Source: Clostridiales bacterium DTU086
GTDB taxonomy: Bacteria; Bacillota; DTU086
Assembly: GCA_001513335.1 (NCBI GenBank)
Contig: LFTO01000038.1
Location: 20,040-84,039, forward strand
Direction of reading: 5' to 3'
Length of the DNA stretch: 64,000 nt
Shown one piece after another: positions 35,557 through 63,080 of the stretch. The notes under the pieces are model-generated. The model worked only from the letters and a program-made list of their open reading frames with translations. It did no database searches and was not told where the DNA came from. Each line of letters starts with the position of its first letter. Position 1 is the first letter of the stretch. The translations under genes were made by a program, and so were the position numbers.

Positions 35557-35850
35557 ATGGAAAAGAGAAACCGTTACACAGCAGAATTTAAAGCAAAAAT
35601 AGTTCTTGAGCTTTTGCAGGAGGAAGCTACCTTAAGTCAGGTTGCCTCCAAGTATCAGTTAAATCCTCAAATGCTCAGCCAGTGGAAGAGCGATTTTGTT
35701 AAAAATGCTTTCGTCGTCTTTGAGAGAAATAAAAATGAGGCCGGTAAACTCCGGAAGGAGATGGCAGAAAAAGAATCCCGGTATCAGCAGATCATTGGCC
35801 AGCAATCTTATGAGATTGAATGGCTCAAAAAAAAATCTGGCCTCAAATAA
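35557..35850 (+). CDS. IS3-family transposase OrfA (HTH)
   Basis: 'RYTAEFKAKIVLELL…LSQVASKYQLNPQMLSQWK' is an IS3/IS911 HTH. It ends just after the slippery AAAAAAAAA. Confidence 0.8.
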   Translation: MEKRNRYTAEFKAKIVLELLQEEATLSQVASKYQLNPQMLSQWKSDFVKNAFVVFERNKNEAGKLRKEMAEKESRYQQIIGQQSYEIEWLKKKSGLK

Positions 35851-36706
35851 GACTCTTGAAGCTCGTAGAGCAATGGCAGAGCGTCAAAACAAACGTATTA
35901 GTTCAACACGCCAGGCAGAACTGTTAAGCATAAACCGGACTAGTATCTACAGGGAACCGGTTACTAAAACATGGTCTGAGCTTGACCTTAAGGATATGCG
36001 GCTTATTGATGAGATATATACAGCGAACCCAACATACGGGTATCGCAGGATTACAGCAGCAATGAACCTGCGGGGCAGGCATATCAACCGGAAACGTGTC
36101 CGGAGGTTAATGAGAATTATGGGTCTTCATGGGATATGCCCCGGACCAAACTTGAGCAAGCGGCTGCATCCCAAGTATATACATCCTTACCTCTTAAGGG
36201 GACTAAAGATCACCCATCCTGATCAGGTGTGGGCAGTGGACATTACATATATCCGCATGCAGCAAGGCTTCATGTACTTATTTATTATCATTGATCTCTA
36301 CAGCCGTTACATTGTGGATTACCAGCTCAGCACCACCTTGGACAGGCACTTTGTGCTGGACTGCTTAAAACGGGCATTTACGAAAGGCAAGCCGGAAATC
36401 ATCAACAGCGATCAAGGTGGCCAATTTACAAATAAAGATTACGTTAAACTGCTTCAAAGTGAAAAGATCAGAATATCTATGGATGGAAAGGGACGTGCCC
36501 TGGACAACATTATTGCAGAGAGATTTTTCAGAACCCTAAAGTACGAAGACATTTATCTGAACGAGTATATCACCCCCAAGGCCTTGCGGAAAGGACTGAA
36601 AAGATTCATCAACTACTACAACCATGAACGCCTTCATCAATCTCTAGGTTACACTCCGCCGGCTGATCATTACCAAGCCGTGCTGGTGGACAAAAAAGCA
36701 TGTTAA
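35826..36706 (+). CDS. IS3-family transposase OrfB (DDE integrase core), expressed as an OrfAB fusion by -1 frameshift at ~35826-35834
   Basis: DDE triad context 'WAVDITYI', 'INSDQGGQFT', 'DNIIAERFFRTLKYE'. rve domain. Confidence 0.75.
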
Positions 36707-37493: not shown

Positions 37494-38141
37494 TTATCTC
37501 CGTTTTGCTAGCTCTTCCAGTACATCCTCCGGCTTCATGCCGTGATGGACCAAAAGAACCATACAGTGATACATAAGATCAGCCATTTCATATCTAATCT
37601 CCTCGGGTGAATCGTTTTTCGAGCCAATGATCACTTCTGTTGCTTCCTCACCGACTTTTTTCAATATCTTATCCCGGCCCTCATTGAACAAATAGGTGGT
37701 GTAGCTTCCTTCGGGCCGCTGTTCATATCTCTCTCTGATAACCTGGTAGAGTTCGCTAACAATATTTTTTGCTTTTTGTTGGGGAAGCAATGCAGGGTCT
37801 GCGGCAGCCTGGTTGAAAAAACAGGAATGGGCCCCTGTATGGCATGCGTTTCCCTGCTGTATCACCTTGATCAACAGAGCATCAGCGTCACAGTCATAGT
37901 CGATACTCACAACTTCCTGAAAATCACCTGAAGTCTCCCCTTTGACCCACAACTGCTGCCGGCTGCGGCTGAAAAAGCAGGTCCTTCCCGTTTGCAGAGT
38001 CCTTTCCAGTGACTCCTTGTTCATGTACGCCAGCATTAGCACCTGGCCGGTTGCTTCCTCCTGGACGATCGCCGGAATCAAACCCTGGCTGTCATATTTG
38101 AGATCATCAGTAAAACCCGGCAGGGATTCCTGTAAAGGCAT
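37494..38141 (-). CDS. hisI: Bifunctional phosphoribosyl-AMP cyclohydrolase / phosphoribosyl-ATP pyrophosphatase
   Basis: HisI 'WVKGETSG…C…D' and a HisE C-terminal half. Confidence 0.9.
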
Positions 38142-38893
38142 TATCTGACCACCACCCCGTTATTCCTTAAGAATTCTTTGGCTTCCGCAATAGTATGTTT
38201 CTTGTAATGGAAAATGGAAGCTGCCAATACAGCATCGGCTTTCCCTATTGTCACCCCTTCCAGCAGGTGCTGCAGGTTTCCTGCTCCGCCGGAAGCGATC
38301 ACGGGGATATTCACTGCTTCGCTGACAGCAGCAGTGATCTCCAGATCATACCCGTCATTGGTACCGTCCCTGTCCATACTTGTCAGGAGAATCTCCCCCG
38401 CTCCCAGCTCTTCCACCTGTTTGACCCAGGCGATAGCTTCCAAGCCTGTTGGTGTCCTGCCACCATGGGTATACACTTCCCAGGTATCACCCGTTCTCTT
38501 GACATCCACCGCCACCACGATACACTGGGAACCAAAAACTCTTGCCGCCTCCCTGACCAGAGCCGGATCCTTGACGGCGGCCGTATTGAGGGAGATCTTG
38601 TCTGCTCCCGCTTTCAGCAATTCCCGGATATCCTGGATGCTTGAAATCCCGCCTCCCACCGTCAGGGGGATAAAGACTTCCTTGGCTGTTTTTCTCACAA
38701 CATCCACGATGGTTTTCCTCTGTTCATAAGAAGCGGTAATGTCCAGGAAAACCAGTTCATCTGCACCCTCACGGTCATAATAGGCCGCGAGCTCTACAGG
38801 GTCCCCCGCGTCTTTCAGGTTGATAAAATTTGTGCCCTTTACTACCCTGCCCTGGGCAACATCCAGGCAGGGAATTATCCTTTTCGCCACCAT
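38141..38893 (-). CDS. hisF: Imidazole glycerol phosphate synthase cyclase subunit
   Basis: 'RIIPCLDV', (beta/alpha)8 motifs. 250 aa. Confidence 0.95.
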
Positions 38894-38894
38894 C

Positions 38895-39629
38895 TCAATG
38901 ACCCCCGATCTCCAGAGCTTCCTCCAATTCGATGCTTTTACTGTACAGCGACTTTCCGATGATTACTCCTTCCATATTGGGATAGTACAGAGCCAGCAGC
39001 GCCAACTCTCTGATGTCATCTATACTGGAAATACCCCCTGAAACGATTATTTTCAAATCAGAGGCGGCCTCCAAAAACCAGGCAATGTCATCCAGGTCAG
39101 GCCCGGTCAAAGTCCCGTCTCTGGAAGTATCGGTGTAGATCACTCTCCTTACACCTTTCTCAGTAATGTTTTCGACAAAATCCAGGACCCTGCTGGAAGC
39201 CATATCTTTCCACCCGTCAACGGCCACCTTGCCCTGTTTGTTGTCTACTCCTACCGCAATTCTTTCTCCGAACCGGGCAACGGCACTCTCAAGTAGTTGA
39301 GGGTCGGACACTGCGGCGGTCCCCAGGATGACCCGGTCGATGCCCATATCCAAATAGTCTTCTATAGCCTTCAGGGTACGGATGCCTCCCCCTACCTCCA
39401 GGGGAACTGATACCCTTTCCCTTATTGCCCGGATGACCGGCAGGTTTTTTGGTTCTCCGGCAAAAGCCCCGTCCAGATCCACCAGGTGAAGCATCGGGGC
39501 ACCCTTTTCCTCCCAAAGCTGTGCAATTTCCGCCGGGTTATCCGAATACACTGTCTCTTCTTCGAGCCGTCCCTTTACCAGGCGGACACATTTACCTCCC
39601 CGGATATCGATTGCAGGAATTATCAGCAC
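38895..39629 (-). CDS. hisA: ProFAR isomerase
   Basis: 'MLIIPAIDI…GG' HisA motifs. Confidence 0.9.
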
Positions 39630-39847
39630 CTACCACCATCTCCCCAAAATTTTTCAGTATTATCAGCCCTCTTGCTTTTTTCCAGGTAAAACTGGACAAC
39701 GTGAACGTTTCCTTTATTCACCATAGAGGTAAAGCTACAACCATAGCTTGTAGTTGCAGTTCCTATTTCCTTGTCCTCCGGGTCCACGTAATGTGAATGG
39801 ACAAAGTAAAAAAGGCTTTGTCGCCTACTCCCCGCGGCAGGGGACAA
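39623..39847 (-). pseudogene. hisH: hisH remnant: only the C-terminal ~70 codons of the glutamine amidotransferase subunit; the 5' ~380 bp are deleted
   Basis: 'FYFVHSHYV…SYGCSF…VVQFYLEKS' aligns to the HisH C-terminus (YFVHSYY…DYG.SF…G.QFHPEKS). Only 237 bp separate hisB and hisA, whereas an intact hisH needs ~600 bp. The catalytic His-Pro-Glu is replaced by Tyr-Leu-Glu. Confidence 0.7.
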
Positions 39848-39866
39848 CTGTTATTAAATATACCTG

Positions 39867-40445
39867 TTAGATCAATCCCTTAGTGGAAGGAATACCCGTG
39901 CCGGTTAAGGCAGCAGCCTCCTTTAGGGCACGTCCGAAAGCCTTAAAAACCGCCTCTATGATATGGTGAGAATTTTTTCCCTGGAGCAACCGGATATGAA
40001 GAGTAAGCCCACCGTGGATGGAAACAGCCCGGAAAAATTCCTCGGCTAGTTCAACATCAAAGGTGCCAACTTTTTCATTTGTAACGGGAACGTCATAACT
40101 CAAAAAGGGGCGGCCGCTGATATCCAATACTGCCATAGCCAAAGCCTCATCCATGGGAATCCAGGCTGCCCCGTACCTGTTTATCCCCTCCCTGGTGCCC
40201 AAAGCCTCATCGATGCACTTACCCAGGCAGATGCCCACATCCTCAACAGTATGGTGGCTGTCTACTTCCAAGTCCCCCTGGGCATCAACGAAAAGATTAA
40301 AAGCACCGTGATATGTAAAAAGCTGCAGCATGTGGTCCATAAAAGGGATACCTGTCCCCCCCCTGAACTTTCCGCTCCCATCAAGATTTAACTCCATCAA
40401 TACTCTCGTTTCCGTCGTGCTCCGTTCAATCTTGGCCATTCTCAT
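39867..40445 (-). CDS. hisB: Imidazoleglycerol-phosphate dehydratase
   Basis: 'TTETRV…LNLDG', 'DTGIGFLDHML', 'DxHH' motifs. Confidence 0.9.
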   Translation of the reverse strand: MRMAKIERSTTETRVLMELNLDGSGKFRGGTGIPFMDHMLQLFTYHGAFNLFVDAQGDLEVDSHHTVEDVGICLGKCIDEALGTREGINRYGAAWIPMDEALAMAVLDISGRPFLSYDVPVTNEKVGTFDVELAEEFFRAVSIHGGLTLHIRLLQGKNSHHIIEAVFKAFGRALKEAAALTGTGIPSTKGLI

Positions 40446-40451
40446 ACCCTT

Positions 40452-41738
40452 CTATCCCCTCTCTCGCCGAACCCTTACAGCGTTAGCATGAGCCTCCAGC
40501 CCCTCAATTTCCGCAAGCAGTTCAATATCCCGGGCACTTTGGAGGAGCCTTTCCCGGGAATATGATATTAGACTTGTGCTCTTGATAAAATCTTCCACAC
40601 CTAAGGGAGAAGCATAAACAGCCGTTCCCCCTGTGGGAAGGATGTGGTTAGTCCCACCAAAATAATCCCCCACCGGCTCCGGTGTATAAGGTCCGAGAAA
40701 AACAGAACCTGCAGCTTGGATTCTGGATACTATGGACGTGGGGTCTTCAACAATAACTTCCAGGTGCTCCGGAGCATATTCGTTGGCAGCTTCAATGGCT
40801 TGTTGGATTGTATCAGTAATTAGAATAAGTCCATTATTCATTAAACTTTTCCGGGCAATTTCTTCTCTTGGCAGCCCCTTTAACTGTACAGCCAATTCAG
40901 CTTTAACTGCTGCGGCAAGTTCTGCATCAGGAGTAGCCAGAATTGAAGCTGAGTTTACGTCATGTTCCGCTTGAGACAGCATATCAGCAGCAATATACCT
41001 TGCATATTCTACGCCGGAAGCAACAATGAATATCTCGCTGGGACCTGCCAGCATATCAATATCCACTTCACCGTAAAGGAGCTTTTTAGCTGCAGTAACA
41101 TATATGTTCCCCGGACCGGTAATTTTGACTACAGGCTTGATACTCTCTGACCCAACAGCCAGCGCTGCAATTGCCTGGGCACCTCCTAACTTGTAAATTT
41201 CAGTAATTCCCAGCTCGCCGGCGGCTGCCAGGGAATACGGGGACAGTTTGCCTGATTTATCCGGGGGAGAAACCATTACTATTTCCTTTACACCGGCAAC
41301 CTGGGCGGGGATCGCGTTCATCAATACAGATGACGGATAGGCGGCAGTCCCGCCCGGCACATAAATTCCTACCCTGGATAAAGGACGAACCAACCTGCCC
41401 CACACCAGTCCTTCAACATCACAGTCGATCCAGGAAAAAGTCTTTTGACGCTCATGGTACCTGCGGATGTTCTCCGCCGCCCGGTGGAGGGAACTGATAA
41501 ATTCAGGTTCCACTGACTTCCGGGCTGCCGTAATTTCTTCTAGAGAAACCTTCAAGCCTGTTTTCCTTAAATCTGCCCCGTCATATTTTTGGGTAAATTC
41601 ATAGAGGGCTTCATCGCCGCGGCAGCAGACATTTTCAATGATATCTCCTACCTGTTCAGATACATTTTTAAGTATTGAATTTACAGACTTTCTTAACATT
41701 CTCAGGTTTATATCGCTATATTTTTTAGTCTTAATCAT
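40452..41738 (-). CDS. hisD: Histidinol dehydrogenase
   Basis: Zn/NAD-binding HisD motifs. 428 aa. Confidence 0.9.
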   Translation of the reverse strand: MIKTKKYSDINLRMLRKSVNSILKNVSEQVGDIIENVCCRGDEALYEFTQKYDGADLRKTGLKVSLEEITAARKSVEPEFISSLHRAAENIRRYHERQKTFSWIDCDVEGLVWGRLVRPLSRVGIYVPGGTAAYPSSVLMNAIPAQVAGVKEIVMVSPPDKSGKLSPYSLAAAGELGITEIYKLGGAQAIAALAVGSESIKPVVKITGPGNIYVTAAKKLLYGEVDIDMLAGPSEIFIVASGVEYARYIAADMLSQAEHDVNSASILATPDAELAAAVKAELAVQLKGLPREEIARKSLMNNGLILITDTIQQAIEAANEYAPEHLEVIVEDPTSIVSRIQAAGSVFLGPYTPEPVGDYFGGTNHILPTGGTAVYASPLGVEDFIKSTSLISYSRERLLQSARDIELLAEIEGLEAHANAVRVRRERG

Positions 41739-42414
41739 TTTTGTCCTCCGCTAATATTTTTCTTATGTCCCCAATAAGCTCTTGAATACGGTGATACTTT
41801 AGTTTATAACTAACCCTGTTAGCAATTACCCTTGCGGTGGCTTCAAAAATTTCATCTACAGCAACCAGATCGTTCTCCCTGAGAGTTTTCCCCGTTGAAA
41901 CAATATCTACAATTCCTTCCGAAAGCCCAACAAGGGGTGCCAGCTCTATATTCCCATGGAGGGGAATAATCTCCGCCTGAACCCCAAGACTCTGCAAGTA
42001 TTTTGAAGCCACTTTCGGAAACTTCGTTGCTATTCTAAGATGAGGGAAATGGGACAGGATCTTTTCTACTCTTTTTCCCTCGTACCCCATGGAATTTAAG
42101 GCAGAACGTGGAAGAGCCAGGACAAAGGTACACTTTCCGAAGCCTAAATCCAATAATTCAAAAAGGTTCTTTTCAGCCTCTTCAATGGTATCCTTTCCCA
42201 CAATGCCAATATCCGCTGCACCGTATTCCACATATGTAGGGATATCAGTTGGCCGGCAAATTATGTATTTTACCTGCTCCTTCTCACATTCTATAAGAAG
42301 TTTTCTGGATTCATCCGATACTCCATCTGTAGGAAGCCCCGCTTTCGCCAATAAATCAAGAGCTTCCAACCCCAGTTTGCCCTTCGGCAGTGCAATAGTC
42401 AGCATGCTGCTCAT
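41731..42414 (-). CDS. hisG: ATP phosphoribosyltransferase, short form (HisGs)
   Basis: 'LTIALPKGKL' with no C-terminal regulatory domain. 227 aa. Confidence 0.9.
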   Translation of the reverse strand: MSSMLTIALPKGKLGLEALDLLAKAGLPTDGVSDESRKLLIECEKEQVKYIICRPTDIPTYVEYGAADIGIVGKDTIEEAEKNLFELLDLGFGKCTFVLALPRSALNSMGYEGKRVEKILSHFPHLRIATKFPKVASKYLQSLGVQAEIIPLHGNIELAPLVGLSEGIVDIVSTGKTLRENDLVAVDEIFEATARVIANRVSYKLKYHRIQELIGDIRKILAEDKND

Positions 42415-42417
42415 ATT

Positions 42418-43611
42418 TTATTCCTCCTCTGCCGGTACTTCCAGAAGTTCCATTCCGGCAGCCCGAGCATATTTCTCTAATTCCTCCCTTGACTTGCCAT
42501 CTAGGTCAATTTCCACTGCAAACCCCTGGGAACGCAAACCTGCTGCAGCACTCAACAGTTTTTTGAAATCCTTTCCGTATACCAGTAGTTGTTTTGAATT
42601 TGAAGAAGGGAGTTTGCCTACCCGTTTCAGGACCAACAGAATTCTCTCAATTCCCAGAGCAAATCCCGTTGCCGGACATGGGAAACCAAATCGGCCAAAA
42701 AGATTATTATACCTACCGCCTCCGCAAATGGGAAATCCCAGTGCCGGAGAATATACCTCAAATACAATACCTGTATAATATTCAAAATCCCTCGTTATCC
42801 CCAGGTCAATAAAAACATTATCCATTAGACCCGCAGCAGCTAACGAGTCATAAACATCTCGAAGGCGTTCCAGGTGAATTGTTATCGGACCGGGTAGAGA
42901 TTTGCCCGCAAGCCGTTCAAAAAATTCCTCACCGGATTGGACTAAAGAAAGGCCGTTTAGCAAGTCCTTCTCTTCCTCTACAAGAGAAGCGCCTTCGATT
43001 ATTGAATTTACTGTTACGTAATCCTTATCTGCTATGGATTGCTTTAAGAGATTTTTCGTTTTTTCAGGTAAACAGGTTATCTCCAAAAATGAATCAAGGA
43101 GCTGTACCTGGCCAACACCAATTTTAAAATCTTCAACCCCCAGAGTGCGCAGGGCTTCACTTGCCAAAATTATCACTTCGGCATCTGCTCTCCCTGTGTC
43201 AGTGCCTATCAACTCTATGCCTGCTTGAAAGAATTCCCGATACCGGCCCGCTTGAGGTTTTTCATGGCGAAAAACATTACCAGTATAAAAAAGACGTAAC
43301 GGCAAGGGTACTCCGGTCAGCTGAGAAGCAACAAAACGAGCAATTGGTGTTGTCATATCAGGCCTTAATGTAAAGGCCTCCCCTTCCCTCCCAAAAAACC
43401 TGTATAGTTGGCTCTTTTCCTCTTCGTTTAATCCCCTACCAATAACATCCTCATATTCTATAGTCCCGGTAATAACCTCTTCATACCCCCAACTAGAAAA
43501 CAAATTAGCTAATTTATTCTCCACAACCCTTTTCGTACTAGCCGCCTCTGAATGCCAGTCTCTAATACCGGTTGGTGTAGACAGGTTCAACTCAGGGTCC
43601 ATGTTTTTCAC
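42418..43611 (-). CDS. hisZ: ATP phosphoribosyltransferase regulatory subunit (HisRS paralogue)
   Basis: Class II aaRS-like core lacking the anticodon-binding domain. Adjacent to the short hisG. Confidence 0.9.
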   Translation of the reverse strand: MKNMDPELNLSTPTGIRDWHSEAASTKRVVENKLANLFSSWGYEEVITGTIEYEDVIGRGLNEEEKSQLYRFFGREGEAFTLRPDMTTPIARFVASQLTGVPLPLRLFYTGNVFRHEKPQAGRYREFFQAGIELIGTDTGRADAEVIILASEALRTLGVEDFKIGVGQVQLLDSFLEITCLPEKTKNLLKQSIADKDYVTVNSIIEGASLVEEEKDLLNGLSLVQSGEEFFERLAGKSLPGPITIHLERLRDVYDSLAAAGLMDNVFIDLGITRDFEYYTGIVFEVYSPALGFPICGGGRYNNLFGRFGFPCPATGFALGIERILLVLKRVGKLPSSNSKQLLVYGKDFKKLLSAAAGLRSQGFAVEIDLDGKSREELEKYARAAGMELLEVPAEEE

Positions 43612-43659
43612 TCCCCACCCTACTATACTTTATCGTGGTAACATGTTAATGTGATGATA

Positions 43660-43692
43660 TCACCGGCACCTGGTGTTGTCAACGAGAATTTT
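43660..43692 (-). promoter_or_regulatory. Sigma-A promoter of the his operon
   Basis: On the minus strand: TTGACA, 17 nt, TATCAT, ~60 nt before the hisZ ATG. No T-box elements are seen in the leader. Confidence 0.5.
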
Positions 43693-43701
43693 ATTTTGAA
43701 A

Positions 43702-43726
43702 GAAAAAAAGTGCCTATAAAGGCACA
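43702..43726 (-). terminator. Weak intrinsic terminator after the ClC gene
   Basis: GTGCC-tataaa-GGCAC hairpin followed by a U-run on the minus strand. Confidence 0.45.
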
Positions 43727-43787
43727 GACAGATTTCGGTATATATGCTTCAGGGTCTTCAAAAGGACTGTTGATAATAATATTTTTG

Positions 43788-45140
43788 CTATTGAGACATT
43801 TTTTGATAATTATAAGGTGACCTTGACCTGGGAACCCAGAAATCAGTCTCAACCTCACGGATACCTTCCTGGATAAGGCGGATATTATATATAGAACACC
43901 CTCTCAATAAGGCCCAGCCAACGAGTGTGGCACATACAGAAGCTATCATAACAGGCAGGACAATAGCGTAGTTGTTTGTAATCTCCATTACCATAATAAT
44001 GGCAGTTATAGGTGATTTGAAGGCACTGCCTAATATTGTTGCCACACCAACAGCAATATATGTCTCAGGCGAGCCAACTATACCGGGAAGAAACGAGCTT
44101 GCCAGCCAAAAGACCCCCCCTCCAAACATTGAACCTATTACCAGGCTGGGGGCAAAAACGCCACCAGACCCTCCAAAGCTAAGAGTAACAACTGTAGCAA
44201 AGATTTTTAATAATACTATTAAGAAAAACATGCCCATAGTAAACCTTAGGCCCATAGCCATATTGATGTATTCGTACCCCTCGCCTAAAACTACAGGGAA
44301 ATACAAAGCAAAAAGGCCTAGAATAATCCCACCGCAAATCGGCTTAACATATCCCGGAACAGAATTTATGGAGGAAACGAAAGAACCGGCTTTATTTAGT
44401 AACAAAACAAAACTGACTCCGACAATTCCACCGATGATTCCCATAAGTGCGAAAATAATTAATTCAGGCCATTGCCCCCAAACGGCGCCTTGCATTTCCA
44501 ATAACACCTTGTTGCCTAAAATGCTCTTGGTAATCTGAGTAGCGACAACGGAAGAGAGTACCAGATAGCAAAAACCTTTGGTATTGAACTCTTCGAGAAC
44601 TGCTTCCATTGCAAATATTACCCCGGCAATAGGAGCATTAAAAATAGCACCTAATCCCCCAGCCGCTCCTGCTGCAGTAATTAAAACCAACTTTCGCTGT
44701 TCAAGGTTAAAAACCTGCCCGATAAAAGACCCAACGCCGGAGCCAATTTGGATCATCGGCCCCTCGGGACCAACAGACCCCCCAAATCCCATACAAAAAG
44801 AAGAGGCGATGCATTCAATAGGTGTAATCTTTCCCGATATACGTCCATCATTTAAAGAAATAGAACGCATAACCTCCTCAACACCGTGCCCTTCCCCCTT
44901 ACGTAAAGTTGCTCCCAAAAACAGCCATACGACAAACATCCCTATAATCGGTATAAATATAATTGCCCACTGGGAAAACCCGGACAGAAAACCGGCAAGG
45001 TGAACCCACATTACCTCATGGAAAAATTCTATAGAGTAACGAAAAATGACAGCACCCAGCCCGGCTCCAATTCCTACTAAAACACATAAAAGAGCAAGCT
45101 TTATTTCAATGCATGAATTTTCCCTGGTATTATTAAGCAT
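43788..45140 (-). CDS. ClC-family anion channel/transporter (no CBS domains, 450 aa)
   Basis: 'GGSVGPEGPMIQIG' (GxEGP-type) and 'GVFAPSL' (GxFxP). The first filter motif reads 'GHGVEEV' instead of GSGIP. Confidence 0.8.
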   Translation of the reverse strand: MLNNTRENSCIEIKLALLCVLVGIGAGLGAVIFRYSIEFFHEVMWVHLAGFLSGFSQWAIIFIPIIGMFVVWLFLGATLRKGEGHGVEEVMRSISLNDGRISGKITPIECIASSFCMGFGGSVGPEGPMIQIGSGVGSFIGQVFNLEQRKLVLITAAGAAGGLGAIFNAPIAGVIFAMEAVLEEFNTKGFCYLVLSSVVATQITKSILGNKVLLEMQGAVWGQWPELIIFALMGIIGGIVGVSFVLLLNKAGSFVSSINSVPGYVKPICGGIILGLFALYFPVVLGEGYEYINMAMGLRFTMGMFFLIVLLKIFATVVTLSFGGSGGVFAPSLVIGSMFGGGVFWLASSFLPGIVGSPETYIAVGVATILGSAFKSPITAIIMVMEITNNYAIVLPVMIASVCATLVGWALLRGCSIYNIRLIQEGIREVETDFWVPRSRSPYNYQKMSQ

Positions 45141-45204
45141 CTTTCCGGTAAATCCCCCTCAAAAACCAATAATAAATTTCATTAGAAACGAAGCAACAAT
45201 TTTA

Positions 45205-45236
45205 ATTATATCATAAAGACTTTTTTTTGAACTGCC
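45205..45236 (-). promoter_or_regulatory. Extended -10 promoter for the ClC gene
   Basis: On the minus strand: TTCAAA …15-17 nt… TGaTATAAT. Confidence 0.45.
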
Positions 45237-45480
45237 ATACTGTTCAAAGGAACACCTTCAAATCCTTACCAAATCCTGGCCCTTGCCTTCTCCTCTTAGC
45301 ATATCCTTCGTTACTAATTAATCAGACAAAAAGATTGGTTTGCCTTGGGGCACAGTATTTTCTTAAGAATTAATTCAAGATTTGACCTTGGGGGTAGACG
45401 CTCTTGCCTTAGACGAATCTTATGGACACATACCCGCCCATAACAAGACATATACTGTCCAGTATCCACTACAGTTGTCA

Positions 45481-45516
45481 CAATTAAAAATCCCTGGGTC
45501 GTTAGACCCAGGGATT
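45481..45516 (-). terminator. Intrinsic terminator after the oxidoreductase beta subunit
   Basis: 13-bp stem AAATCCCTGGGTC-gtta-GACCCAGGGATTT followed by a U-run on the minus strand. Confidence 0.8.
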
Positions 45517-45536: not shown

Positions 45537-46523
<987 letters not shown>

Positions 46524-46532
46524 TCACTCAAA

Positions 46533-47729
46533 TTAGTCTAGTTCGTCCAGATGGAAGGGTGCGATGAAGGCTTCGTCAGCAGCAGGCTGCTTACCAATAA
46601 AGCTCTGACCCTTCTTGAACAGGCAGTAGAACTCTTCGCGGGTACATACTTCGCCGCCGAGACCACCAACACACTGTACAACAGGAGCATCGCTTACACC
46701 GTACAGAGCAGCCTTAACTTCAGCTGCAACGGGGCCGGTTCTACCTGTCATACCGAAGGAGAAGGAGTTGTCAAATACAACGATAGCTTTTGCATTTGCC
46801 AAAGTTTCACGAACAGCCTTGGTCGGGAACGGACGCATTAGTCTCAGTCTTGCTACACCGACTTTTTCGCCTAAACCACGAAGTTTCTTGGCAACAGTCT
46901 TAGCGGTTTCAATGTGGCCACCCTGACCAATCAGGATAACTTCGGCATCGTCGCAGAATGTCTTTTCGATGAAGGGATCATACTTACGGCCGAAAATTTC
47001 ACCGAATTGTGCCCAAACTTCTTCTACTACAGGTTCAACGCCATTCCACAGCTGCCATCTCTGGAACTGCAGCGGGGGACCCATTTCAGGTTCAATCTGA
47101 GGTCCAATGATCATGGGATCTCTTGGATCCAGAATGTGATGGTTCTTGTACGGTGGCAGGAACTCATCAGCTTGAGCCTGTTCAGGAATATCAACAGCAC
47201 CTAAAATGTGAGTTACATAGTATCCGTCCTGGGCAGCAATCTGGGGCAACAGAACTCTCGGGTCTTCACCAATACGATAATATGCCAGAGTGTTGTCCAG
47301 AATTTCCTGCGGTGTGGAAGCCCAACCAATAATGAAGCCTTGGTCACGAATGGACAGAGCATCCATGTGTTCAGAACCAAAGTCACCCGGCGGGTCTAAA
47401 GTTCTGTTACCAATTACCATTTGCAACGGCAGTCTTTCACCAGAGATTGGGGAATAAACTTCCATTGCGTAGGTAACACCAACACCGGAGCTACCGGTAT
47501 AGGCCCTTGCGCCAGCAGCAGAAGCACCGTATACAACACTCAGCTGAGCGTGTTCGCCTTCGCCGTGAATGAATTCTGCATCCAAGTCACCATTAGCTAC
47601 CATACGAGCAAGCTCGGACATAATACCGGTGTAAGGACGAATCGGATAGGAACAAATAACGTCAACGTCTGCTAGACGTGCACCGTGAGCTGCAGCAACA
47701 CAACCAGAAATATACTCTATTCTACCCAT
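46533..47729 (-). CDS. 2-oxoacid:ferredoxin oxidoreductase alpha subunit
   Basis: POR/VOR/KOR alpha-domain homology. 398 aa. Confidence 0.85.
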   Translation of the reverse strand: MGRIEYISGCVAAAHGARLADVDVICSYPIRPYTGIMSELARMVANGDLDAEFIHGEGEHAQLSVVYGASAAGARAYTGSSGVGVTYAMEVYSPISGERLPLQMVIGNRTLDPPGDFGSEHMDALSIRDQGFIIGWASTPQEILDNTLAYYRIGEDPRVLLPQIAAQDGYYVTHILGAVDIPEQAQADEFLPPYKNHHILDPRDPMIIGPQIEPEMGPPLQFQRWQLWNGVEPVVEEVWAQFGEIFGRKYDPFIEKTFCDDAEVILIGQGGHIETAKTVAKKLRGLGEKVGVARLRLMRPFPTKAVRETLANAKAIVVFDNSFSFGMTGRTGPVAAEVKAALYGVSDAPVVQCVGGLGGEVCTREEFYCLFKKGQSFIGKQPAADEAFIAPFHLDELD

Positions 47730-47753
47730 TAAATCTTCACCTCCTCAAAGGAT

Positions 47754-48053
47754 TTAGTCTTCAAAGTCTAGCTCAGGAACCATGGTGATTGCGCCGGTGG
47801 GACATTCGTTTGCACATACACCACAGCCCTTGCAGTACTTGTAATTGAATTCTGGAACTTCGCCACGGGTAATGCATGCATCAGCGCAGTAAATCCAGCA
47901 CTGCCAGCACTGAGTGCATTTTTCAGCTTCAATAACAGGACGCTGTACACGCCAATGACCGGTAACCATCTTATCGTTTTCAACTTGTGGAGACGGAACA
48001 GTACCGGCAAAAGGCAGTTCAGCTAATTTTCTTTCAGCTAGGCTTCTACTCAT
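47754..48053 (-). CDS. 2-oxoacid:ferredoxin oxidoreductase delta subunit (2x[4Fe-4S] ferredoxin)
   Basis: Two CxxCxxCxxxCP motifs. 99 aa. Confidence 0.85.
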   Translation of the reverse strand: MSRSLAERKLAELPFAGTVPSPQVENDKMVTGHWRVQRPVIEAEKCTQCWQCWIYCADACITRGEVPEFNYKYCKGCGVCANECPTGAITMVPELDFED

Positions 48054-48084
48054 TCAATACACCTCCTCGTGGTAATTAAATAAA

Positions 48085-48738
48085 CTATGCAACTGATGCT
48101 GCGTCAGCAATCTGGCATTTCTCATAGCCTTGCTTGAAGGCTTCTTTGTTGGAAATCTGAGCAATAGCTGCATCATAGCTAACGAACTCAGTAGCTTTAA
48201 CAACTGCGCCAACTAATGCAGCGGAAATACCTATACCAATACCGGACTTGTCGTATACACCTTCAGCACCGTCCAGGGTGACAATTGCTTCAGCCATTCC
48301 GAAAGCGTCAACTGTAACGATCTTGTCGAACTTAGCCAGCTGATCGGCAGGGATGAACTTAGCAATTTCTTTCGGTGAACGCTTGGTGTTAACTACCAGA
48401 GTCTTACCAGCGCTGGGACCTTCAGCAATATAGTTGCCCTTTACCAAAGTTTCCTCGGTCAGAACAACGATTTCGGGGTCTTCGTTTTCATAAACGAATT
48501 TACTTTCAATGGGCTCATCGGAAACCCTAGCATATGCACGTACAGGAACGTAAATACGGTCCGGCAGGTCTACATAGTTTTCGAAAGCCTGAACATACTT
48601 GCCGTCAGCTTTCCATGCAGCATTGGTCAAAATAACAACCACGTCACGAGCTTCTTTGTTCTGAAGAACACCTCTTGCCCAACAAGTAACCTGTCTTAGA
48701 GTTGGTTCTTCAAAAAGTTTTTTGATGTCAACACTCAC
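48085..48738 (-). CDS. 2-oxoacid:ferredoxin oxidoreductase gamma subunit
   Basis: POR-gamma family. 217 aa. Confidence 0.8.
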   Translation of the reverse strand: MSVDIKKLFEEPTLRQVTCWARGVLQNKEARDVVVILTNAAWKADGKYVQAFENYVDLPDRIYVPVRAYARVSDEPIESKFVYENEDPEIVVLTEETLVKGNYIAEGPSAGKTLVVNTKRSPKEIAKFIPADQLAKFDKIVTVDAFGMAEAIVTLDGAEGVYDKSGIGIGISAALVGAVVKATEFVSYDAAIAQISNKEAFKQGYEKCQIADAASVA

Positions 48739-48874: not shown

Positions 48875-51040
48875 TTACATATTGGTAGCTATCCTGGCAA
48901 GGTTATTCTCACCTTCACCCAGGATTGCATCCAAAGCTTCGTTAAAATGACGCATTTCAATCTTGAGTGCTGCTTTTTGTTCTTCGGAAGCCTTGGATAC
49001 GTCTTTAACCTCAGCAATAAACTCTCTTAAGGCGATTAAGGATGCTTGTTGACATATACCTTCTATGTGGGAACCCGCAAATCCTTCTGTTTTTTCAACA
49101 ATTTGGTCAAAATCCACATCCGCGCCAAGGGGCTTGCCCTTAGTATGGATTTGAAGAATTTCACGTCTCATAACGGCATCCGGCATGGGGAATTCAAGAA
49201 TATAGTCGAACCGTCCAGGACGGAGAAGCGCTTTATCAAGGCTTTCGAGCCTGTTGGTAGCAGCAAGAACAATAACTCCCTTTAGTTCTTCAAGGCCGTC
49301 AAGCTCACTCAAAAGGATACTTACCATCCTTTCAGATGTCTTAGTGTGGCCTCCGCTTCCGCGCTCAGGGGCCAAGGCGTCAATCTCATCAAAGAACAGG
49401 ATGCAGGGCGACGCCTGTCTAGCCTTCTGGAAAACTTCAATCAACATCTTTTCTGACTGGCCGGTCCAATGTGAGAAAAGCATTGGGCTGGGTACCGAAA
49501 TAAAGTTTATTTCTGTCTCTGTTGCAATTGCCTTGGCCATCAATGTCTTACCAGTACCCGACGGACCTGAAAGGAGAATACCCTTGGGGGTTTCCATTTT
49601 GATTTGCTTGAACAGATCACCATATCTAAGAGGCCAATCAACCAGAGCAATAAGTGTTTGTTTGATTTCCTCCAATCCACCTACATCATTCCAACTTACG
49701 TTAGGCACTTCAGAGAAGAACTCACGGGTAGCAGATGGACGAACCTGCTTTAGTGCTTCCTGGAAGTCAGCCATGGACACAACCATTTTAACATCCTGGT
49801 TGCTGACCTTTTCTCCCAAATCAATCTGAGGGAGCAAACGTCTCAAGGCACTCATGCCGGCCTCTTTACAGAGGAAAGCAAGGTCCGCACCGACAAATCC
49901 ATGAGTAACTGCGGCAAGTTGCCTTATATCTACATCATCTGCTAAAGTCATGCCACGGGTATGAATTTGAAGAATATCTTCGCGGCCGTACCTGTCAGGC
50001 GCATTAATCACAATTTCCCTGTCAAAACGGCCTGGCCTTCTCAAAGCGGGATCAAGGAGGTCGGGCATGTTTGTAGCACCGATTACTACAATGTCACCCC
50101 TGGCGTCCATGCCGTCGAGGAGGGCAAGGAGCTGGGCAACAACCCTTTTTTCTACATCACCATGGACATCTCCACGCTTCGGAGCCAGGGCATCTATTTC
50201 GTCCAGGAACAAAATACTGGGAGCACGCCGTCTTGCTTCAGCAAACACTTCCCGGAGCTTGGCTTCGCTTTCGCCGTAATATTTGTTCATAACTTCCGGA
50301 CCGTTTACATGGATAAAGTGAACATCTGTTTCTGAGGCAACAGCCTTTGCAATCAAAGTTTTTCCTGTGCCAGGAGGGCCATAGAGAAGAACCCCTTTGG
50401 GAGACTCGATACCTAAGGTTCTGAATACCTCGGGGAACTTCATGGGAAGCTCAATTATTTCACGGACTCTCTGGACCTCTTGTTCCAGACCCCCGATATC
50501 TTCATAAGAAACCCTCTTCCTAGTCATGTAGTCTTCAGGTTCCTTGATTTTCAGCTTTGTATCCTTTGTTATTACCGCAGGGCCCTTGGGATTCAATCCG
50601 GCAACAGTGAAGCTCTCATCTGTTCCCACAAGCATAACAACGATTCTATCCCCGGCAACAATAGGGATACCAACCATCATTCTAAGAAGGTTATATAATA
50701 AGTTTTCGTCCTCATATTTTTTTGTGGCATCTTCAGGGGTAAGAATAACAATATTGGCTGGTTCTACTTTTGCCTTTCGAATTTGGACCTTCTCGTCCAA
50801 ACTCACGCCGGCATTATATCTAATAGTAGAGGTCATCATTACAGATTCATTACGGCAGTAGGCGCCAAAAGAAGGTACAACCTTAGCGACGGTTTTTCTT
50901 TTTCCAAGGATTTCAACGTATTCATTAAGCTGAACACCAATATCTTTCATATCCTCGGGGTCCATACGAATAAGTCCCCTGTTGGTGTCCTCCAACATTC
51001 CTTCGATAACCCTTAACCTAACGCTTTCACGTTTAGCCAC
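48875..51040 (-). CDS. CDC48/VCP-like double-AAA+ ATPase (CDC48 N-domain + D1 + D2)
   Basis: N-terminal double-psi-barrel region 'RLRVIEGMLEDTNRGLIRMDP…'. Two Walker A motifs 'GPPGTGKT' and 'GPSGTGKT'. Second-region-of-homology arginine motifs. GTG start at 51040 with a GGAGGGG RBS. Confidence 0.85.
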   Translation of the reverse strand: MAKRESVRLRVIEGMLEDTNRGLIRMDPEDMKDIGVQLNEYVEILGKRKTVAKVVPSFGAYCRNESVMMTSTIRYNAGVSLDEKVQIRKAKVEPANIVILTPEDATKKYEDENLLYNLLRMMVGIPIVAGDRIVVMLVGTDESFTVAGLNPKGPAVITKDTKLKIKEPEDYMTRKRVSYEDIGGLEQEVQRVREIIELPMKFPEVFRTLGIESPKGVLLYGPPGTGKTLIAKAVASETDVHFIHVNGPEVMNKYYGESEAKLREVFAEARRRAPSILFLDEIDALAPKRGDVHGDVEKRVVAQLLALLDGMDARGDIVVIGATNMPDLLDPALRRPGRFDREIVINAPDRYGREDILQIHTRGMTLADDVDIRQLAAVTHGFVGADLAFLCKEAGMSALRRLLPQIDLGEKVSNQDVKMVVSMADFQEALKQVRPSATREFFSEVPNVSWNDVGGLEEIKQTLIALVDWPLRYGDLFKQIKMETPKGILLSGPSGTGKTLMAKAIATETEINFISVPSPMLFSHWTGQSEKMLIEVFQKARQASPCILFFDEIDALAPERGSGGHTKTSERMVSILLSELDGLEELKGVIVLAATNRLESLDKALLRPGRFDYILEFPMPDAVMRREILQIHTKGKPLGADVDFDQIVEKTEGFAGSHIEGICQQASLIALREFIAEVKDVSKASEEQKAALKIEMRHFNEALDAILGEGENNLARIATNM

Positions 51041-51074
51041 CGAATTACACCCCTCCCCTAGTAGCCGCTCAGGC

Positions 51075-51106
51075 ACACATTAAATATATACGCTTGCTTG
51101 TCGAAA
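51075..51106 (-). promoter_or_regulatory. Putative sigma-A promoter of the CDC48-like gene
   Basis: On the minus strand: TTGATT, 17 nt, TATATT. Confidence 0.4.
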
Positions 51107-54246: not shown

Positions 54247-55515
54247 TCATCGCAGCAGTGCCCTGAAACCAATATCCCGACGGTAATACATATTATCAAA
54301 ATGTATTGTGTTTATACATTGATAAGCTTTATCTAGCGCCGTCCGAAGGTTTGGGCCCTTTGCGGTAACGCCCAGCACTCTTCCTCCTGAAGTCACTACC
54401 CGACCATTGTCCAATTTTGTCCCAGCATGAAAAACCATAATATCTTCATCACGAAGCTGTTCCAGTCCATGGATAGTCTTTCCTTTTTCATAATAACCCG
54501 GATAGCCGCCCGAAGCAACTACTATACAAACACTGGGTTCCTTGGACCATGATATCTTCATTTCATGGAGCCTTTCATTCACTACTTTCTGAATTATTTC
54601 GAAAAGATCAGTTTCAAGACGGAACAGAACAGGCTGAGTTTCAGGATCTCCAAAGCGAACATTGAACTCCAATACTTGCGGCCCCTTTTCAGTAACCATT
54701 AGCCCGGCGTATAAGACTCCCTTATAGCGGATACCTTCAGCGTTCATCCCTTCCACAACCGGCTCCAAAATTTTACGAACAACAACGGCATGTAATTCTC
54801 CGGTATAGACCGGAGCAGGGGAATAGGCACCCATACCACCGGTATTGGGTCCCTGGTCACCATCAAAAGCCCGCTTGTGATCCTGAGAGGACACCATAGG
54901 AATAATTGTTTTTCCGTCAGAAAAAGCAAGAATACTGACCTCTTCACCCTTTAACAGCTCTTCTACAACGATCTTGTCCCCTGCACTGCCAAAAACCTTT
55001 TCTACCATTATCTTCTCAACAGCGGCAAGGGCTTCTTCTTTCGAACTTGCCACAAACACTCCCTTACCGGCAGCCAGACCGTCAGCTTTCACTACACAAG
55101 CATCAAGATTATTCTCAATATAATCTCTGGCTTTTTCGGCACAATCAAAAACCTGGAAGGGGGCGGTAGGAATGTTATACTTGGCCATAAATTTCTTGGC
55201 ATAACTTTTGCTCCCTTCAAGGAGGGCAGCTTTCCTGCAGGGACCGAAAACCCTGCGTCCCGCATTTTCAAAAACATCAACCAGTCCTGCAACAAGCGGC
55301 GCTTCGGGACCGACAACTGTCAGGTCTATCTTTTTCTCTTCTGCCACTTTCAGCAGCCCGTCAATATCTGTTGGATCTATAGGAATGCATTCTGCAATTT
55401 CAGCGATACCTGCATTTCCCGGTGCACAAAAGACCTTTTTTACACGGGGGCTCTGTGATATTTTCCAGACAATGGCGTGCTCCCTGCCCCCGCCCCCAAC
55501 GACTAAAACTTTCAT
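54247..55515 (-). CDS. purD: Phosphoribosylamine--glycine ligase
   Basis: ATP-grasp PurD motifs 'MKVLVVGGGGREHA'. Confidence 0.95.
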   Translation of the reverse strand: MKVLVVGGGGREHAIVWKISQSPRVKKVFCAPGNAGIAEIAECIPIDPTDIDGLLKVAEEKKIDLTVVGPEAPLVAGLVDVFENAGRRVFGPCRKAALLEGSKSYAKKFMAKYNIPTAPFQVFDCAEKARDYIENNLDACVVKADGLAAGKGVFVASSKEEALAAVEKIMVEKVFGSAGDKIVVEELLKGEEVSILAFSDGKTIIPMVSSQDHKRAFDGDQGPNTGGMGAYSPAPVYTGELHAVVVRKILEPVVEGMNAEGIRYKGVLYAGLMVTEKGPQVLEFNVRFGDPETQPVLFRLETDLFEIIQKVVNERLHEMKISWSKEPSVCIVVASGGYPGYYEKGKTIHGLEQLRDEDIMVFHAGTKLDNGRVVTSGGRVLGVTAKGPNLRTALDKAYQCINTIHFDNMYYRRDIGFRALLR

Positions 55516-55540
55516 GTTCAGAACACTCCTGATAGGAAAT

Positions 55541-57085
55541 TTAATGTTTGAAATGACGCATTCCAGTAAAGATCATGATAATCCCGTTCGCATTAGCAGC
55601 AGCAATAGACTCTTCATCTCTGATTGACCCTCCCGGCTGAATTATAGCCTTGATTCCGGCTTTAGCAGCCGCCTCAACGGTGTCTCCGAAGGGAAAGAAT
55701 GCATCTGATGCCAAATAAGCTCCGGCCGCACCGGCACCGGCTTGTTTTAAAGCAATCCCGGCAGAACCGACACGGTTCATCTGACCTGCCCCAACACCAA
55801 GTGTAGCCTTATCCTTCGTAACTACGATTGCATTTGACTTAACGTGCTTTACCACCTTCCAGGCAAAAAGGAGTTCCTCAATATCCTGCTGGGATGGCTG
55901 GGCATTGGTAACTACCTTCCATTCCTCAGGAGTTACGTTTCCCGTATCGATATCCTGGACCAGGAAGCCACCACTGACCTTTTTAAGGTCATAAGCCTTT
56001 TGTCCTAATTCCTCAAGTTCACCGCACTCCAGCACTCTGAGTTTGGGTTTAGCAGAAAGTACTTCCAGGGCATCCGGGTCAACAGAAGGTGCAATAACAG
56101 CTTCAAGGAATATTCCTGTCAGTTCCTCTGCCGTTACCCTGTCAATTCCCCGGTTTAAAGCTACAATGCCCCCGTATGCTGAAAGCCTGTCCGCCTCCAA
56201 GGCACGAATATATGCTTCTTTTATATTTTTGCCCATTGCAGTTCCACAGGGGTTTGTGTGCTTAATTATCGCAGCTGCCGGGTCTTGAAACTCCCGGACC
56301 AGGGAAAGGGCGGCCTCGATATCAACAATATTATTGAAGGAGAGTTCTTTCCCCTGGAGCTGCCTTGCACCCCCCAAAGTCCCCGAAACAGCAGCATCAT
56401 CCTTATAGAAGGCAGCTTTTTGGTGGGGGTTTTCACCGTACCGGAGAGTCTGAATCCTTTTCCCTGTGATTGAGAAGGTCTCACCAAAATCCTCTTTTCT
56501 GCAAATACCCGCTAAATAATCGGCTATACAGCGATCATACTCGGCAGTATGGTTGAATGCTTCCTGAGCCAGAGCAAGACGCATACTGTCTGAAACCCCG
56601 CCATTTTCCTTGATCTCCCGGATTATTTCCTTGTACCTTAAAGGATTTACAACAACTACAACGTCATGGTGGTTTTTGGCTGCAGCCCGTACCATGGCAG
56701 GCCCGCCGATATCAATATTTTCCACAGCTTCTTCCAGAGTCACATCTGCCTTGCTTATTGTCTGTCTGAATGGATAAAGGTTTACCGCCACAATATCAAT
56801 AGGAGTAATACCGTTTTCCTCCAGCTGCCCAAGATGCTCCGGAGTTCTCCGGGCAAGAATACCCCCGTGAACCTTGGGATGCAGCGTTTTGACTCTGCCG
56901 TCCAGTATTTCAGGGAATCCGGTAACGTCACTAACATATGTAACTTCAACACCGGCCTCCCTGAGAGTTTTTGCCGTCCCCCCTGTTGATACAACCTCAT
57001 AACCCAGAACAGTTAGCTCCTTTGCGAACTCGACAACACCTGACTTATCAGAAACACTTACAAGCGCTCTTTTCTTTGCCGGCAC
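55541..57085 (-). CDS. purH: Bifunctional AICAR transformylase / IMP cyclohydrolase
   Basis: MGS-like N-terminus 'RALVSVSDK' plus AICARFT. 514 aa. Confidence 0.95.
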
Positions 57086-57714
57086 CAGACATTACCTCCT
57101 TCATGAATAATAACTTTTCGTCCGACAATACGTACATTACCCAAAACCAGCTGTCTAACAACCAGCGGATAAAGCTGATGTTCCTGTTCCAGTATCCGGG
57201 CAGAAAGGGTTTCCACCGTATCATTTTCAATAATAGGTACAACTCGCTGCCCAATGATAGGACCAGTATCCATACCTTCATCAACAAAATGTACAGTACA
57301 TCCCGAGTATTTCACCCCATAGTCTAAAGCCTGCTGCTGTGCGTTCAGGCCAGGAAAAGCAGGGAGCAGGGAAGGGTGAATGTTAACAATCCGGTTAGGG
57401 AAAGCCTGGACAAACCCAGGACCCAAGATTCGCATAAACCCGGCCAGACAAATTAGATCAATGTTCTTCTCTTTAAGAAACCCAACTAACGCCTCATCAA
57501 AGGTTTTCCTGTCCTTAAAATCACTGCCAATAAACACCGCCGTCTCAATTCCATGTTCAATGGCACGCTGAAGCGCCTGGGCATCTGGTTTATCACTAAC
57601 CACAACTCCAATTTCCGCCGGAATATACCTGTTTTCCACCGCCTCAATCAGGGCTTGAAGATTGGACCCCCTCCCGGAGGCTAACACTGCAATACGCACC
57701 TTGAATCCCCCCAT
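57058..57714 (-). CDS. purN: Phosphoribosylglycinamide formyltransferase
   Basis: '[16 protein letters not shown]'. The start may be the internal GTG (VRIAV…) with a GGGGGGA RBS. Confidence 0.9.
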
Positions 57715-57717
57715 TTA

Positions 57718-62380: not shown

Positions 62381-63080
62381 GTCCTCCGCCTCCTTCCAGG
62401 AAATTAATCATGGAGATAAATATTTTTACTCCGTCGGTACCTGACATTATCTCTTCCATGCACCTTTCCGGGTGAGGCATCATTCCCAAAACATTCCCCC
62501 CATGGTTGCAAATCCCGGCAATATTATTAACAGAGCCATTGGGATTAGACTCCGGCGTCGGTTCACCGGAAGGATTGCAATACCTGAATACAACCCGTCC
62601 CGAATCTTCCAATTCTTTCAGTGTTTCGGCATCGGCGTAATAGTTTCCATCGGAATGGGCTATAGGTATTTGAAGTATCTCTCCTTTCCTGCAGGCATTG
62701 GTAAAGGGAGTTTTTGAATTTACTACCCGCAGGTGTGTATTTTGGCACCGGAACTGCAGGTTGTCATTCTTACGCATAGCTCCTGGCAAAAGTCCTGCTT
62801 CAAGGAGAATTTGGAAACCATTACATATCCCTAATACCAGGCCACCGCCCAGGGCATATTCAGAAACTGCCTCCATAACAGGAGAAAAACGGGCTATTGC
62901 ACCTCCCCGCAGGTAATCCCCGTAAGAAAAGCCTCCAGGGAGCACAATACAGTCATATTTGCCCACGTCTTTATTCCGGTGCCAAATATATTCCGCCTCA
63001 TGTCCCATTACATCCTGGACAGCATATTTTACATCAAGATCGCAATTTGACCCCGGGAATACTACTATCCCAACTTTCAT
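62373..63080 (-). CDS. purQ: Phosphoribosylformylglycinamidine synthase I (glutaminase)
   Basis: Class I GATase 'GICNGFQ'. 235 aa. Confidence 0.9.

Follow-up and report, generated by a model that had tools for sequence, protein, structure and literature searches.

The window analysed here, a 64,000-nt stretch of contig LFTO01000038.1 from Clostridiales bacterium DTU086, carries a histidine operon in which hisH, the gene for the glutaminase subunit of imidazole glycerol phosphate (IGP) synthase, is reduced to a 237-bp stub filling the whole spacer between hisB and hisA on the minus strand. Based on comparisons with related sequences, we consider it highly likely that this stub is a fixed, non-functional pseudogene and that the remaining operon is maintained by selection. 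An initial annotation of the window had described hisH as truncated at its 5′ end within an otherwise intact operon. It had not remarked on the internal frameshift of the remnant, on its standing as an old lesion fixed in two lineages, on a separate deletion in a relative, or on a recombination mosaic that ends inside the stub.

A hisH remnant between hisB and hisA

NCBIfam profiles gave full-length matches for all seven other his genes (hisZ, G, D, B, A, F and IE) and only a partial match to the HisH profile TIGR01855 for the spacer, so that the reading of a 5′-truncated hisH among intact neighbours stands. From the TAA that ends hisB (39869-39867) to the GTG that opens hisA (39629-39627) there is a gap of exactly 237 bp, in agreement with the length given previously. 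A comparison of this spacing with that of relatives, which had been proposed as a check, gave a different picture for most of them: among 80 relatives from GTDB genomes, a hisB with a hisA nearby downstream is mostly followed by a gap of at least ~0.6 kb with a hisH of ~200 amino acids (AA) inside. In clade C, consisting of the 348-kb JGI contig L087 together with L089 and L090, a 213-AA hisH is intact between hisB and hisA; identity of the clade to the window is 88.5% across the upstream POR genes and 89.5% from hisA to hisIE. Relatives at ~70% identity (L086, L125, L126) carry an intact 208-AA hisH at the same site and share the synteny of the window (ClC gene, hisZGDBHAFIE, pcrA, ligA). A scan of GTDB species representatives with HisB gave a nearest match of only 61% identity, and a scan of JGI metagenomes with HisZ gave no match above 43% identity. 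Exact matches to the HisB and HisF of the window came from metagenome contigs alone.

The stub corresponds to the 3′ third of hisH, residues ~126-213 of the 213-AA protein, and aligns both as DNA and as protein to the hisH found at the same locus in L086, L087 and L125. Its 74-AA open reading frame (ORF; 39623-39847) matches TIGR01855 over profile positions 134-187 of 198 only, with an E value of 2.8e-12 and a score of 46.8 bits against a cut-off of 105.4, and thus falls short of a full-length family match. The Pfam GATase profile PF00117 matched neither this ORF nor a frame-repaired 86-AA sequence; the alignment to HisH profiles suggested by the initial annotation therefore held for TIGR01855, in part, and failed for PF00117. 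In tblastn searches with the HisH proteins of 12 relatives, residues ~133-185 were placed at 39832-39674 (E down to 2.6e-14) and residues ~189-199 (GLIILKNFGEM) at 39669-39637, in a different frame.

Alignment to the hisH genes of L086, L087 and L125 showed that the 5′ deletion extends through codon ~125 and took the ribosome-binding site and start codon with it. The nucleotides directly following the hisB stop (39852-39866) bear no likeness to the hisB-hisH spacers of relatives and contain no Shine-Dalgarno sequence. The absence of the catalytic Cys region and the change of His-Pro-Glu to Tyr-Leu-Glu, both noted previously, were borne out by the alignment with intact orthologues: the GICLG segment (C79, L087 numbering) is deleted, and at codons 39688-39683 (TAC CTG) His181 is replaced by Tyr and Pro182 by Leu, with Glu183 kept. 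The stub accordingly lacks a complete class-I amidotransferase triad (Cys-His-Glu), nor does it form a translatable gene with a ribosome-binding site, a start codon and an unbroken frame. The last 16 residues of the 74-AA ORF are out of the HisH frame: a loss of 5 bp between 39673 and 39672 has put the genuine C-terminus (39669-39592) into another frame. This second frame, which contains the hisA Shine-Dalgarno sequence (GGGGAG, 39645-39640), runs 38 nt into hisA, as in clade C, and ends at the original hisH stop (39594-39592), the stop used by clade C. Loss of the hisH stop codon, a candidate lesion from the comparison with L086, was rejected on this account.

Recurrence and decay of the remnant

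Near-identical stubs were found in several contigs, which together with the window make up clade A: L001 (JGI 3300065959, Ga0617768_205; 99.95% identical to the window), L082/L083 (ENA ERZ2647879; 99.5%, of low coverage and with many 1-nt deletions elsewhere), L084 (Logan SRR2016817; 99.9%) and L085 (ENA ERZ18327520; 98.7%). The window derives from a metagenome-assembled genome (MAG), the related contig L001 is plainly a mosaic, and 1-nt deletions abound in L082, which could all be taken to mean that misassembly or sequencing error collapsed a full hisH in the window contig. We regard such an artefact as exceedingly improbable, as the 237-bp stub recurs with 0-3 differences in contigs of five other samples or assemblers, a diverged stub occurs, with the same junction, in at least four further samples and also in one NCBI MAG, and one error could not have yielded several independent lesions. 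To judge from these independent assemblies of ~9 further samples, the truncation is real and fixed and no product of assembly. No independent assembly holds a full-length GATase ORF in the spacer and the fragment aligns to HisH, so that neither of the two outcomes named by the initial annotation as fatal to its claim was encountered. As a separate observation, on L001 (1-493 and 4264-6104), this contig carries window positions 42952-39183 at 99.95% identity, with an abrupt join inside hisZ to an acetate kinase gene at its 3′ end and another inside hisA to xseA-folD; we read it as a chimeric assembly or, alternatively, as a partially duplicated his segment.

The diverged stub is that of clade B, which comprises L121-L124 and the contig L088 from an NCBI MAG, representing three JGI samples, one Logan run and one MAG. 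Clade B is ~91-92% identical to the window in nucleotide sequence from hisZ to hisIE, and its HisB is 94% identical at the protein level. In L121-L124 the junction lies, as in the window, right after hisB and reads TAA/TGA-CAG[G/T]TAT[A/T]TTTAA[T/G]AACAGTTGTCCCC. The stub of L088 (GCA_050951445.1, JBMNJB010000007.1, 1-190) begins ~35 nt downstream of the junction, which is therefore not covered, and since this contig begins inside the remnant, its assembly must have broken at this locus. The secondary lesions of the two clades differ: clade B shows several 1-nt indels and another small deletion near EKS, without the 5-bp deletion of the window type, and retains CAC CCG (His-Pro), the Tyr-Leu of the window being due to two C-to-T changes specific to clade A. 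The shared junction and the differing secondary lesions argue that the large deletion is older than the split between clades A and B, and that the frameshifts and Tyr-Leu came later.

A different allele was found in L128 (ENA ERZ18327520 k141_1441466, 1-1348), with a HisB nearer to that of the window (84%) than any other beyond clades A and B. Here hisA follows hisB after 37 nt and nearly all of hisH is gone, with the hisH-type Shine-Dalgarno region kept upstream along with the last ~19 nt of hisH, which carry the hisA Shine-Dalgarno sequence; the 3′ end of hisH is thus retained in all three deletion alleles (clades A, B and L128). As its junctions differ from those of the clade A/B deletion, the loss looks independent, which suggests a separate hisH deletion in the L128 lineage and points to the dispensability of the operon hisH in this group.

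Comparison of the window with L123 gave values expected of a unitary pseudogene. Over 231 aligned nt the stubs show 49 substitutions, a Jukes-Cantor distance of 0.249, along with 5 indel events within 237 nt. In the seven his genes, 1940 codons contain 279 synonymous and 134 non-synonymous differences, corresponding to a synonymous divergence (dS) of 0.238, a non-synonymous divergence (dN) of 0.031 and a dN/dS of 0.129, with no indels or stop codons in ~5.8 kb of coding sequence; all other indels between the two sequences fall in intergenic DNA. HisH-like peptides of clade B are spread over all three frames, and no ORF is common to both clades. With stub divergence equal to dS, the deletion would date back to the clade A/B split, and the other genes would have been held by selection without hisH.

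We propose that clades A and B descend from one ancestor in which a single deletion of ~375-390 bp would have taken out everything from the ribosome-binding site and start codon through codon ~125, and with it the Cys nucleophile. The stub would thereafter have drifted neutrally, with clade A gaining the 5-bp deletion and the His-to-Tyr and Pro-to-Leu changes, and the clade B branch gaining other indels, mostly of single bases. Only the last ~40 nt of the stub are conserved, because the Shine-Dalgarno sequence and start codon of hisA lie there. That the stub has instead acquired a new function, as a 74-AA peptide binding HisF or as a regulatory or attenuator RNA, appears very improbable. The ORF of clade A, running from a TTG at 39847 to a stop at 39623, does overlap the hisA start as GTGCTGA, an arrangement typical of translational coupling, and a small hairpin is present at 39828-39844. 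However, the frameshifts of clade B, which differ from that of clade A, destroy the ORF, the substitution rate of the stub equals dS, the stub folds no more stably than shuffled sequence (z -0.18) and has no Rfam match, and L128 is without nearly all of it. An attenuator role was rejected in particular, as no terminator-like site was called in the stub and the hairpin folds like shuffled sequence.

Selection on the remaining his genes and the source of nitrogen

Relative to clade B, dN/dS was 0.12-0.17 for hisZGDB (0.13 for hisB), 0.14 for hisA and 0.055 for hisF. The hisZGDB values weigh most, as the hisH-bearing donors known for this block come no closer than 80% (HisB). Strong purifying selection on the seven his genes argues that the operon is still used for histidine synthesis and that the nitrogen for converting phosphoribulosylformimino-aminoimidazole carboxamide ribonucleotide (PRFAR) to IGP must come from outside this locus; from the same selection we infer that the window lineage is prototrophic for histidine. 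In an alignment to 2wjz, the HisF of the window keeps the equivalents of Thermotoga maritima R5, D11, E46, D98, K99, D130, E167 and R249, and thus has the features of an intact cyclase, with the catalytic Asp11 and Asp130, the ammonia gate (R5, E46, K99, E167) and the docking residues conserved. The HisH-contact set was drawn from the 1GPW interface, to which HisF contributes 37 residues (PMC9032424, S1 Table); 34 of these are present in the HisF of the window. Between the window and L123, the 34 contact codons show 1 non-synonymous change compared with 17 expected under neutrality, and their omega of 0.05 is like that of the remaining HisF (0.056). Relaxation of the HisF docking face, sought as a discriminator of the nitrogen source, was not seen apart from two changes in the single contig L124. 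The unrelaxed interface mildly favours a HisH partner that still exists.

Several observations weigh against an operon kept by selection without hisH. A second hisH elsewhere in the genome would lie beyond the reach of the 64-kb window. The conservation of the docking face may be structural, as the bottom of the barrel and the ammonia gate are built from the same residues. Recombination is moreover active: the ClC-hisB block is mosaic, and L085 differs from the window by a dS of 0.21-0.23 in hisA and hisF, as against 0.00-0.016 in the neighbouring genes. HisA and HisF are 94.7% and 96.0% identical as proteins in a pair otherwise 99.5-100% identical, and on this comparison the segment (38141-39629 in the window, 5077-6565 in L085) marks a recent recombination tract confined to hisA-hisF. 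With hisF alleles being exchanged, the low dN/dS of hisA, hisF and hisIE could partly reflect hisH-bearing donors. The independent loss in L128 is seen in one 1348-bp short-read contig.

For the missing amide nitrogen, we give close to an even chance to a HisH encoded elsewhere in the genome and docking on the unchanged HisF interface. The 64-kb window has purQ as its single further class-I amidotransferase and holds nothing else HisH-like, which suits a second reading: that the genome has no glutaminase for this step and HisF stands alone, drawing directly on the free NH3 of an ammonia-rich digester liquor (~pH 8, 54 °C), hisH having become dispensable and been lost. We hold this to be a serious possibility, although one somewhat short of even. 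Thermophilic manure digester liquors would typically hold tens of millimolar free NH3. A HisA identical to that of the window is recorded on a 101,354-bp contig of NCBI WGS project LFRM01, the likely source. LFRM01 is among the MAGs of thermophilic (54 °C) cattle-manure biogas reactors (PMC4736482). There are precedents in vivo: a hisH deletion mutant of Corynebacterium glutamicum shows no growth defect in ammonium minimal medium, and C. glutamicum hisF complements an Escherichia coli hisH mutant (PMC3896937); a Klebsiella pneumoniae hisH mutant is rescued by high NH4+, as given in the statement of PMC5919458 that cites Rieder et al. 1994. At least two independent hisH losses are indicated in related digester lineages (clades A/B; L128), and hisA also comes directly after hisB, with no hisH within 6 kb, in the GTDB loci L005, L039 and L080. 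Among these Clostridia, the HisF of L039 (7358-8170; Caldicoprobacterales) is without the docking residues, carrying D98C and R249E at HisH docking and hinge positions, and that of L005 (7351-8106; Clostridia bacterium AS22ysBPME_114) carries R5K and R249K.

Against a stand-alone HisF speaks the same contact face that mildly favours a partner, unrelaxed and with D98, K99 and R249 unchanged. Clade C, with its intact hisH, also comes from anaerobic digesters (HiFi data for L089 and L090; ERR10905741, ERR10905743), and habitat alone therefore does not explain the loss of hisH. Loss of hisH makes E. coli and Salmonella auxotrophic even where the medium contains ammonium (PMC3896937), and the view of the genome is limited to the window. 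We put forward tentatively, and with some doubt, that in clades A/B and independently in L128 IGP synthase has long (dS ~0.24) been without any glutaminase subunit, HisF working on free ammonia. It is unlikely that the pathway is dead or dying in a histidine auxotroph fed by its community, with the other his genes not yet decayed, an option that the initial annotation had left standing. Auxotrophy commonly arises when one gene is lost from an otherwise complete amino-acid operon, and amino acids are plentiful in digester communities; the glutaminase subunit is also essential in E. coli and Salmonella (PMC3896937). Yet over a time in which the stub took ~0.25 substitutions per site (~21% substitutions) and 5 indels, the his coding sequence kept a dN/dS of 0.13 and acquired no indel or stop, where ~120 indels would be expected at the indel rate of the stub, and the seven genes are intact in both clades.

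Genomic neighbourhood and comparison with known systems

Coordinates of the his genes, of the parts of the remnant and of the surrounding features are collected in Table 1.

Table 1. Features of the his locus and its surroundings, in window positions.
Feature	Position	Strand	Evidence and remarks
hisZ	42418-43611	minus	intact; TIGR00443 above cut-off
hisG	41731-42414	minus	intact; TIGR00070 above cut-off
hisD	40452-41738	minus	intact; TIGR00069 above cut-off
hisB, imidazoleglycerol-phosphate dehydratase	39867-40445	minus	intact; NF002111 263.7 bits (cut-off 231)
hisH remnant, very probably a pseudogene (entire hisB-hisA spacer)	39630-39866	minus	237 bp; TIGR01855 partial match
Deletion junction, 5′ side, 15 nt directly after hisB stop (CAGGTATATTTAATA)	39852-39866	minus	alignments to relatives
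Remnant frame 1, HisH residues ~126-185 (…FYFVHSHYVDPEDKEIGTATTSYGCSFTSMVNKGNVHVVQFYLEKS)	39674-39851	minus	translation, tblastn, alignment to L087 HisH
TAC CTG (Tyr-Leu) replacing catalytic His and following Pro	39683-39688	minus	translation; alignment to intact orthologues
5-bp deletion site (frameshift after EKS)	between 39673 and 39672	minus	alignment to L086, L087, L125 hisH
Remnant frame 2, HisH residues ~187-213	39592-39671	minus	translation; 85% identity to L087 HisH (P0139) C-terminus
hisA, GTG start codon	38895-39629	minus	intact; TIGR00007 266.7 bits
hisF, IGP synthase cyclase subunit, usual HisH partner	38141-38893	minus	intact; TIGR00735 384 bits
hisIE	37494-38141	minus	intact; NF002747 281 bits
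Mosaic block: ClC channel gene (43788-45140), hisZGDB, most of hisH remnant	39665-45486	minus	blastn, protein identity, sliding-window identity, GC
purQ-purL-purF-purM-purN-purH-purD operon	54247-63080	minus	complete; purQ (62373-63080) at head

The mosaic block is only ~69-72% identical in nucleotide sequence to clade C (L087, L089, L090), compared with 88-95% for both flanks (the POR genes on one side, hisA to hisIE on the other). At the protein level, identity between the window and clade C is 93-96% for HisA, HisF and HisIE and 94-95% for two POR subunits, and only 69-78% for ClC, HisZ, HisG, HisD and HisB. Sliding-window analysis placed the identity switch at 39675-39650, within the last codons of the stub, and the left edge near 45486. 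GC content in the window is 0.43-0.46 in the block vs. 0.48-0.51 in the flanks; relatives at the 70% level have 0.43-0.47, and clade C is homogeneous at 0.48-0.52. As judged from composition, a relative of lower GC content, akin to L125 or L128, was probably the donor of the ClC-hisZGDB-hisH′ block now found in clades A and B. The idea that the 5′ deletion of hisH is a scar of this recombination was rejected, the identity switch lying ~180 nt downstream of it.

Upstream of hisZ we found a sigma-70-like promoter (43682-43654) and, further upstream, a terminator-like hairpin. A search against Rfam revealed no leader, T-box or other RNA near the his operon, its sole match in the window being a tRNA at 12952-13025. 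Clade C shows two features of its own around these genes: an extra 473-AA ORF without Pfam match between ClC and hisZ (L087 4593-6014), and in L087 (9840-10000) a 160-nt hisB-hisH spacer that is not present in the window, L086 or L125. On the other side of the operon, between hisIE and pcrA, lies an insertion sequence of the IS3 family (35557-36706, plus strand; orfA 35557-35850, orfB 35696-36706), found at the same place in L085. This interval holds NYN, YjcQ and UPF0236 genes in clade B, an AAA_13 ATPase gene in clade C and other genes in L086/L125, and with its gene content differing among relatives it is a variable hotspot. A gene for a CDC48-family double-AAA ATPase (48875-51076, minus strand; TIGR01243, 849 bits), a type more typical of archaea and eukaryotes, adjoins the four-subunit 2-oxoacid:ferredoxin oxidoreductase cluster (45537-48738).

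Taken alone, the stub is an ordinary pseudogene; its value lies in the population picture, in which it appears fixed in two diverged lineages and decays neutrally, hisH is lost separately in a third, and seven genes remain under selection. We know of no natural example of glutaminase-independent histidine synthesis. If it is true that no other hisH exists, these genomes would be the first such case, tying the architecture of an amino-acid pathway to digester ammonia levels and bearing on models of amidotransferase subunits as late additions to ammonia-using enzymes. They would then also be the natural counterpart of the hisH mutants of C. glutamicum and K. pneumoniae and of the proposed glutaminase-free ancestral pathway. 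Such MAGs would be called histidine auxotrophs by automated pathway reconstruction, perhaps wrongly.

Like the canonical hisH of Bacillota (L086, L087, L125), the stub lies between hisB and hisA; it is homologous over residues ~126-213, and its 3′ end overlaps hisA in the manner of clade C. Unlike these genes, it is a relic without ~60% of the gene, including the start codon and Cys, with Tyr-Leu in place of His-Pro, frameshifted and below the family cut-off. L005 and L039, hisH-less by architecture, share with the window a contiguous hisB-hisA-hisF order (no glutaminase gene within 6 kb), but they keep no relic and their HisF is more divergent (58% identity; D98C and R249E in L039), whereas the window has retained both a relic and an unchanged HisF. 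The laboratory hisH-null strains that stay prototrophic, those of C. glutamicum (PMC3896937) and, at high NH4+, of K. pneumoniae (Rieder et al. 1994, through PMC5919458), resemble the window in having hisF and the other his genes intact and the glutaminase missing in an ammonium-rich setting. The loss in the window differs from theirs in being natural, fixed and old (dS ~0.24), with prototrophy read from purifying selection and the genome seen through 64 kb. Finally, single genes of amino-acid operons decay in bacteria of nutrient-rich niches, as reportedly in dairy Lactococcus lactis, for which Delorme et al. are said to have described his operon lesions in 1993; there too one gene of an otherwise complete operon is inactivated by deletion or frameshift. 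In L. lactis, however, the pathway is said to be non-functional and more genes to decay, in contrast to the window, where the remaining genes appear to be under strong purifying selection.

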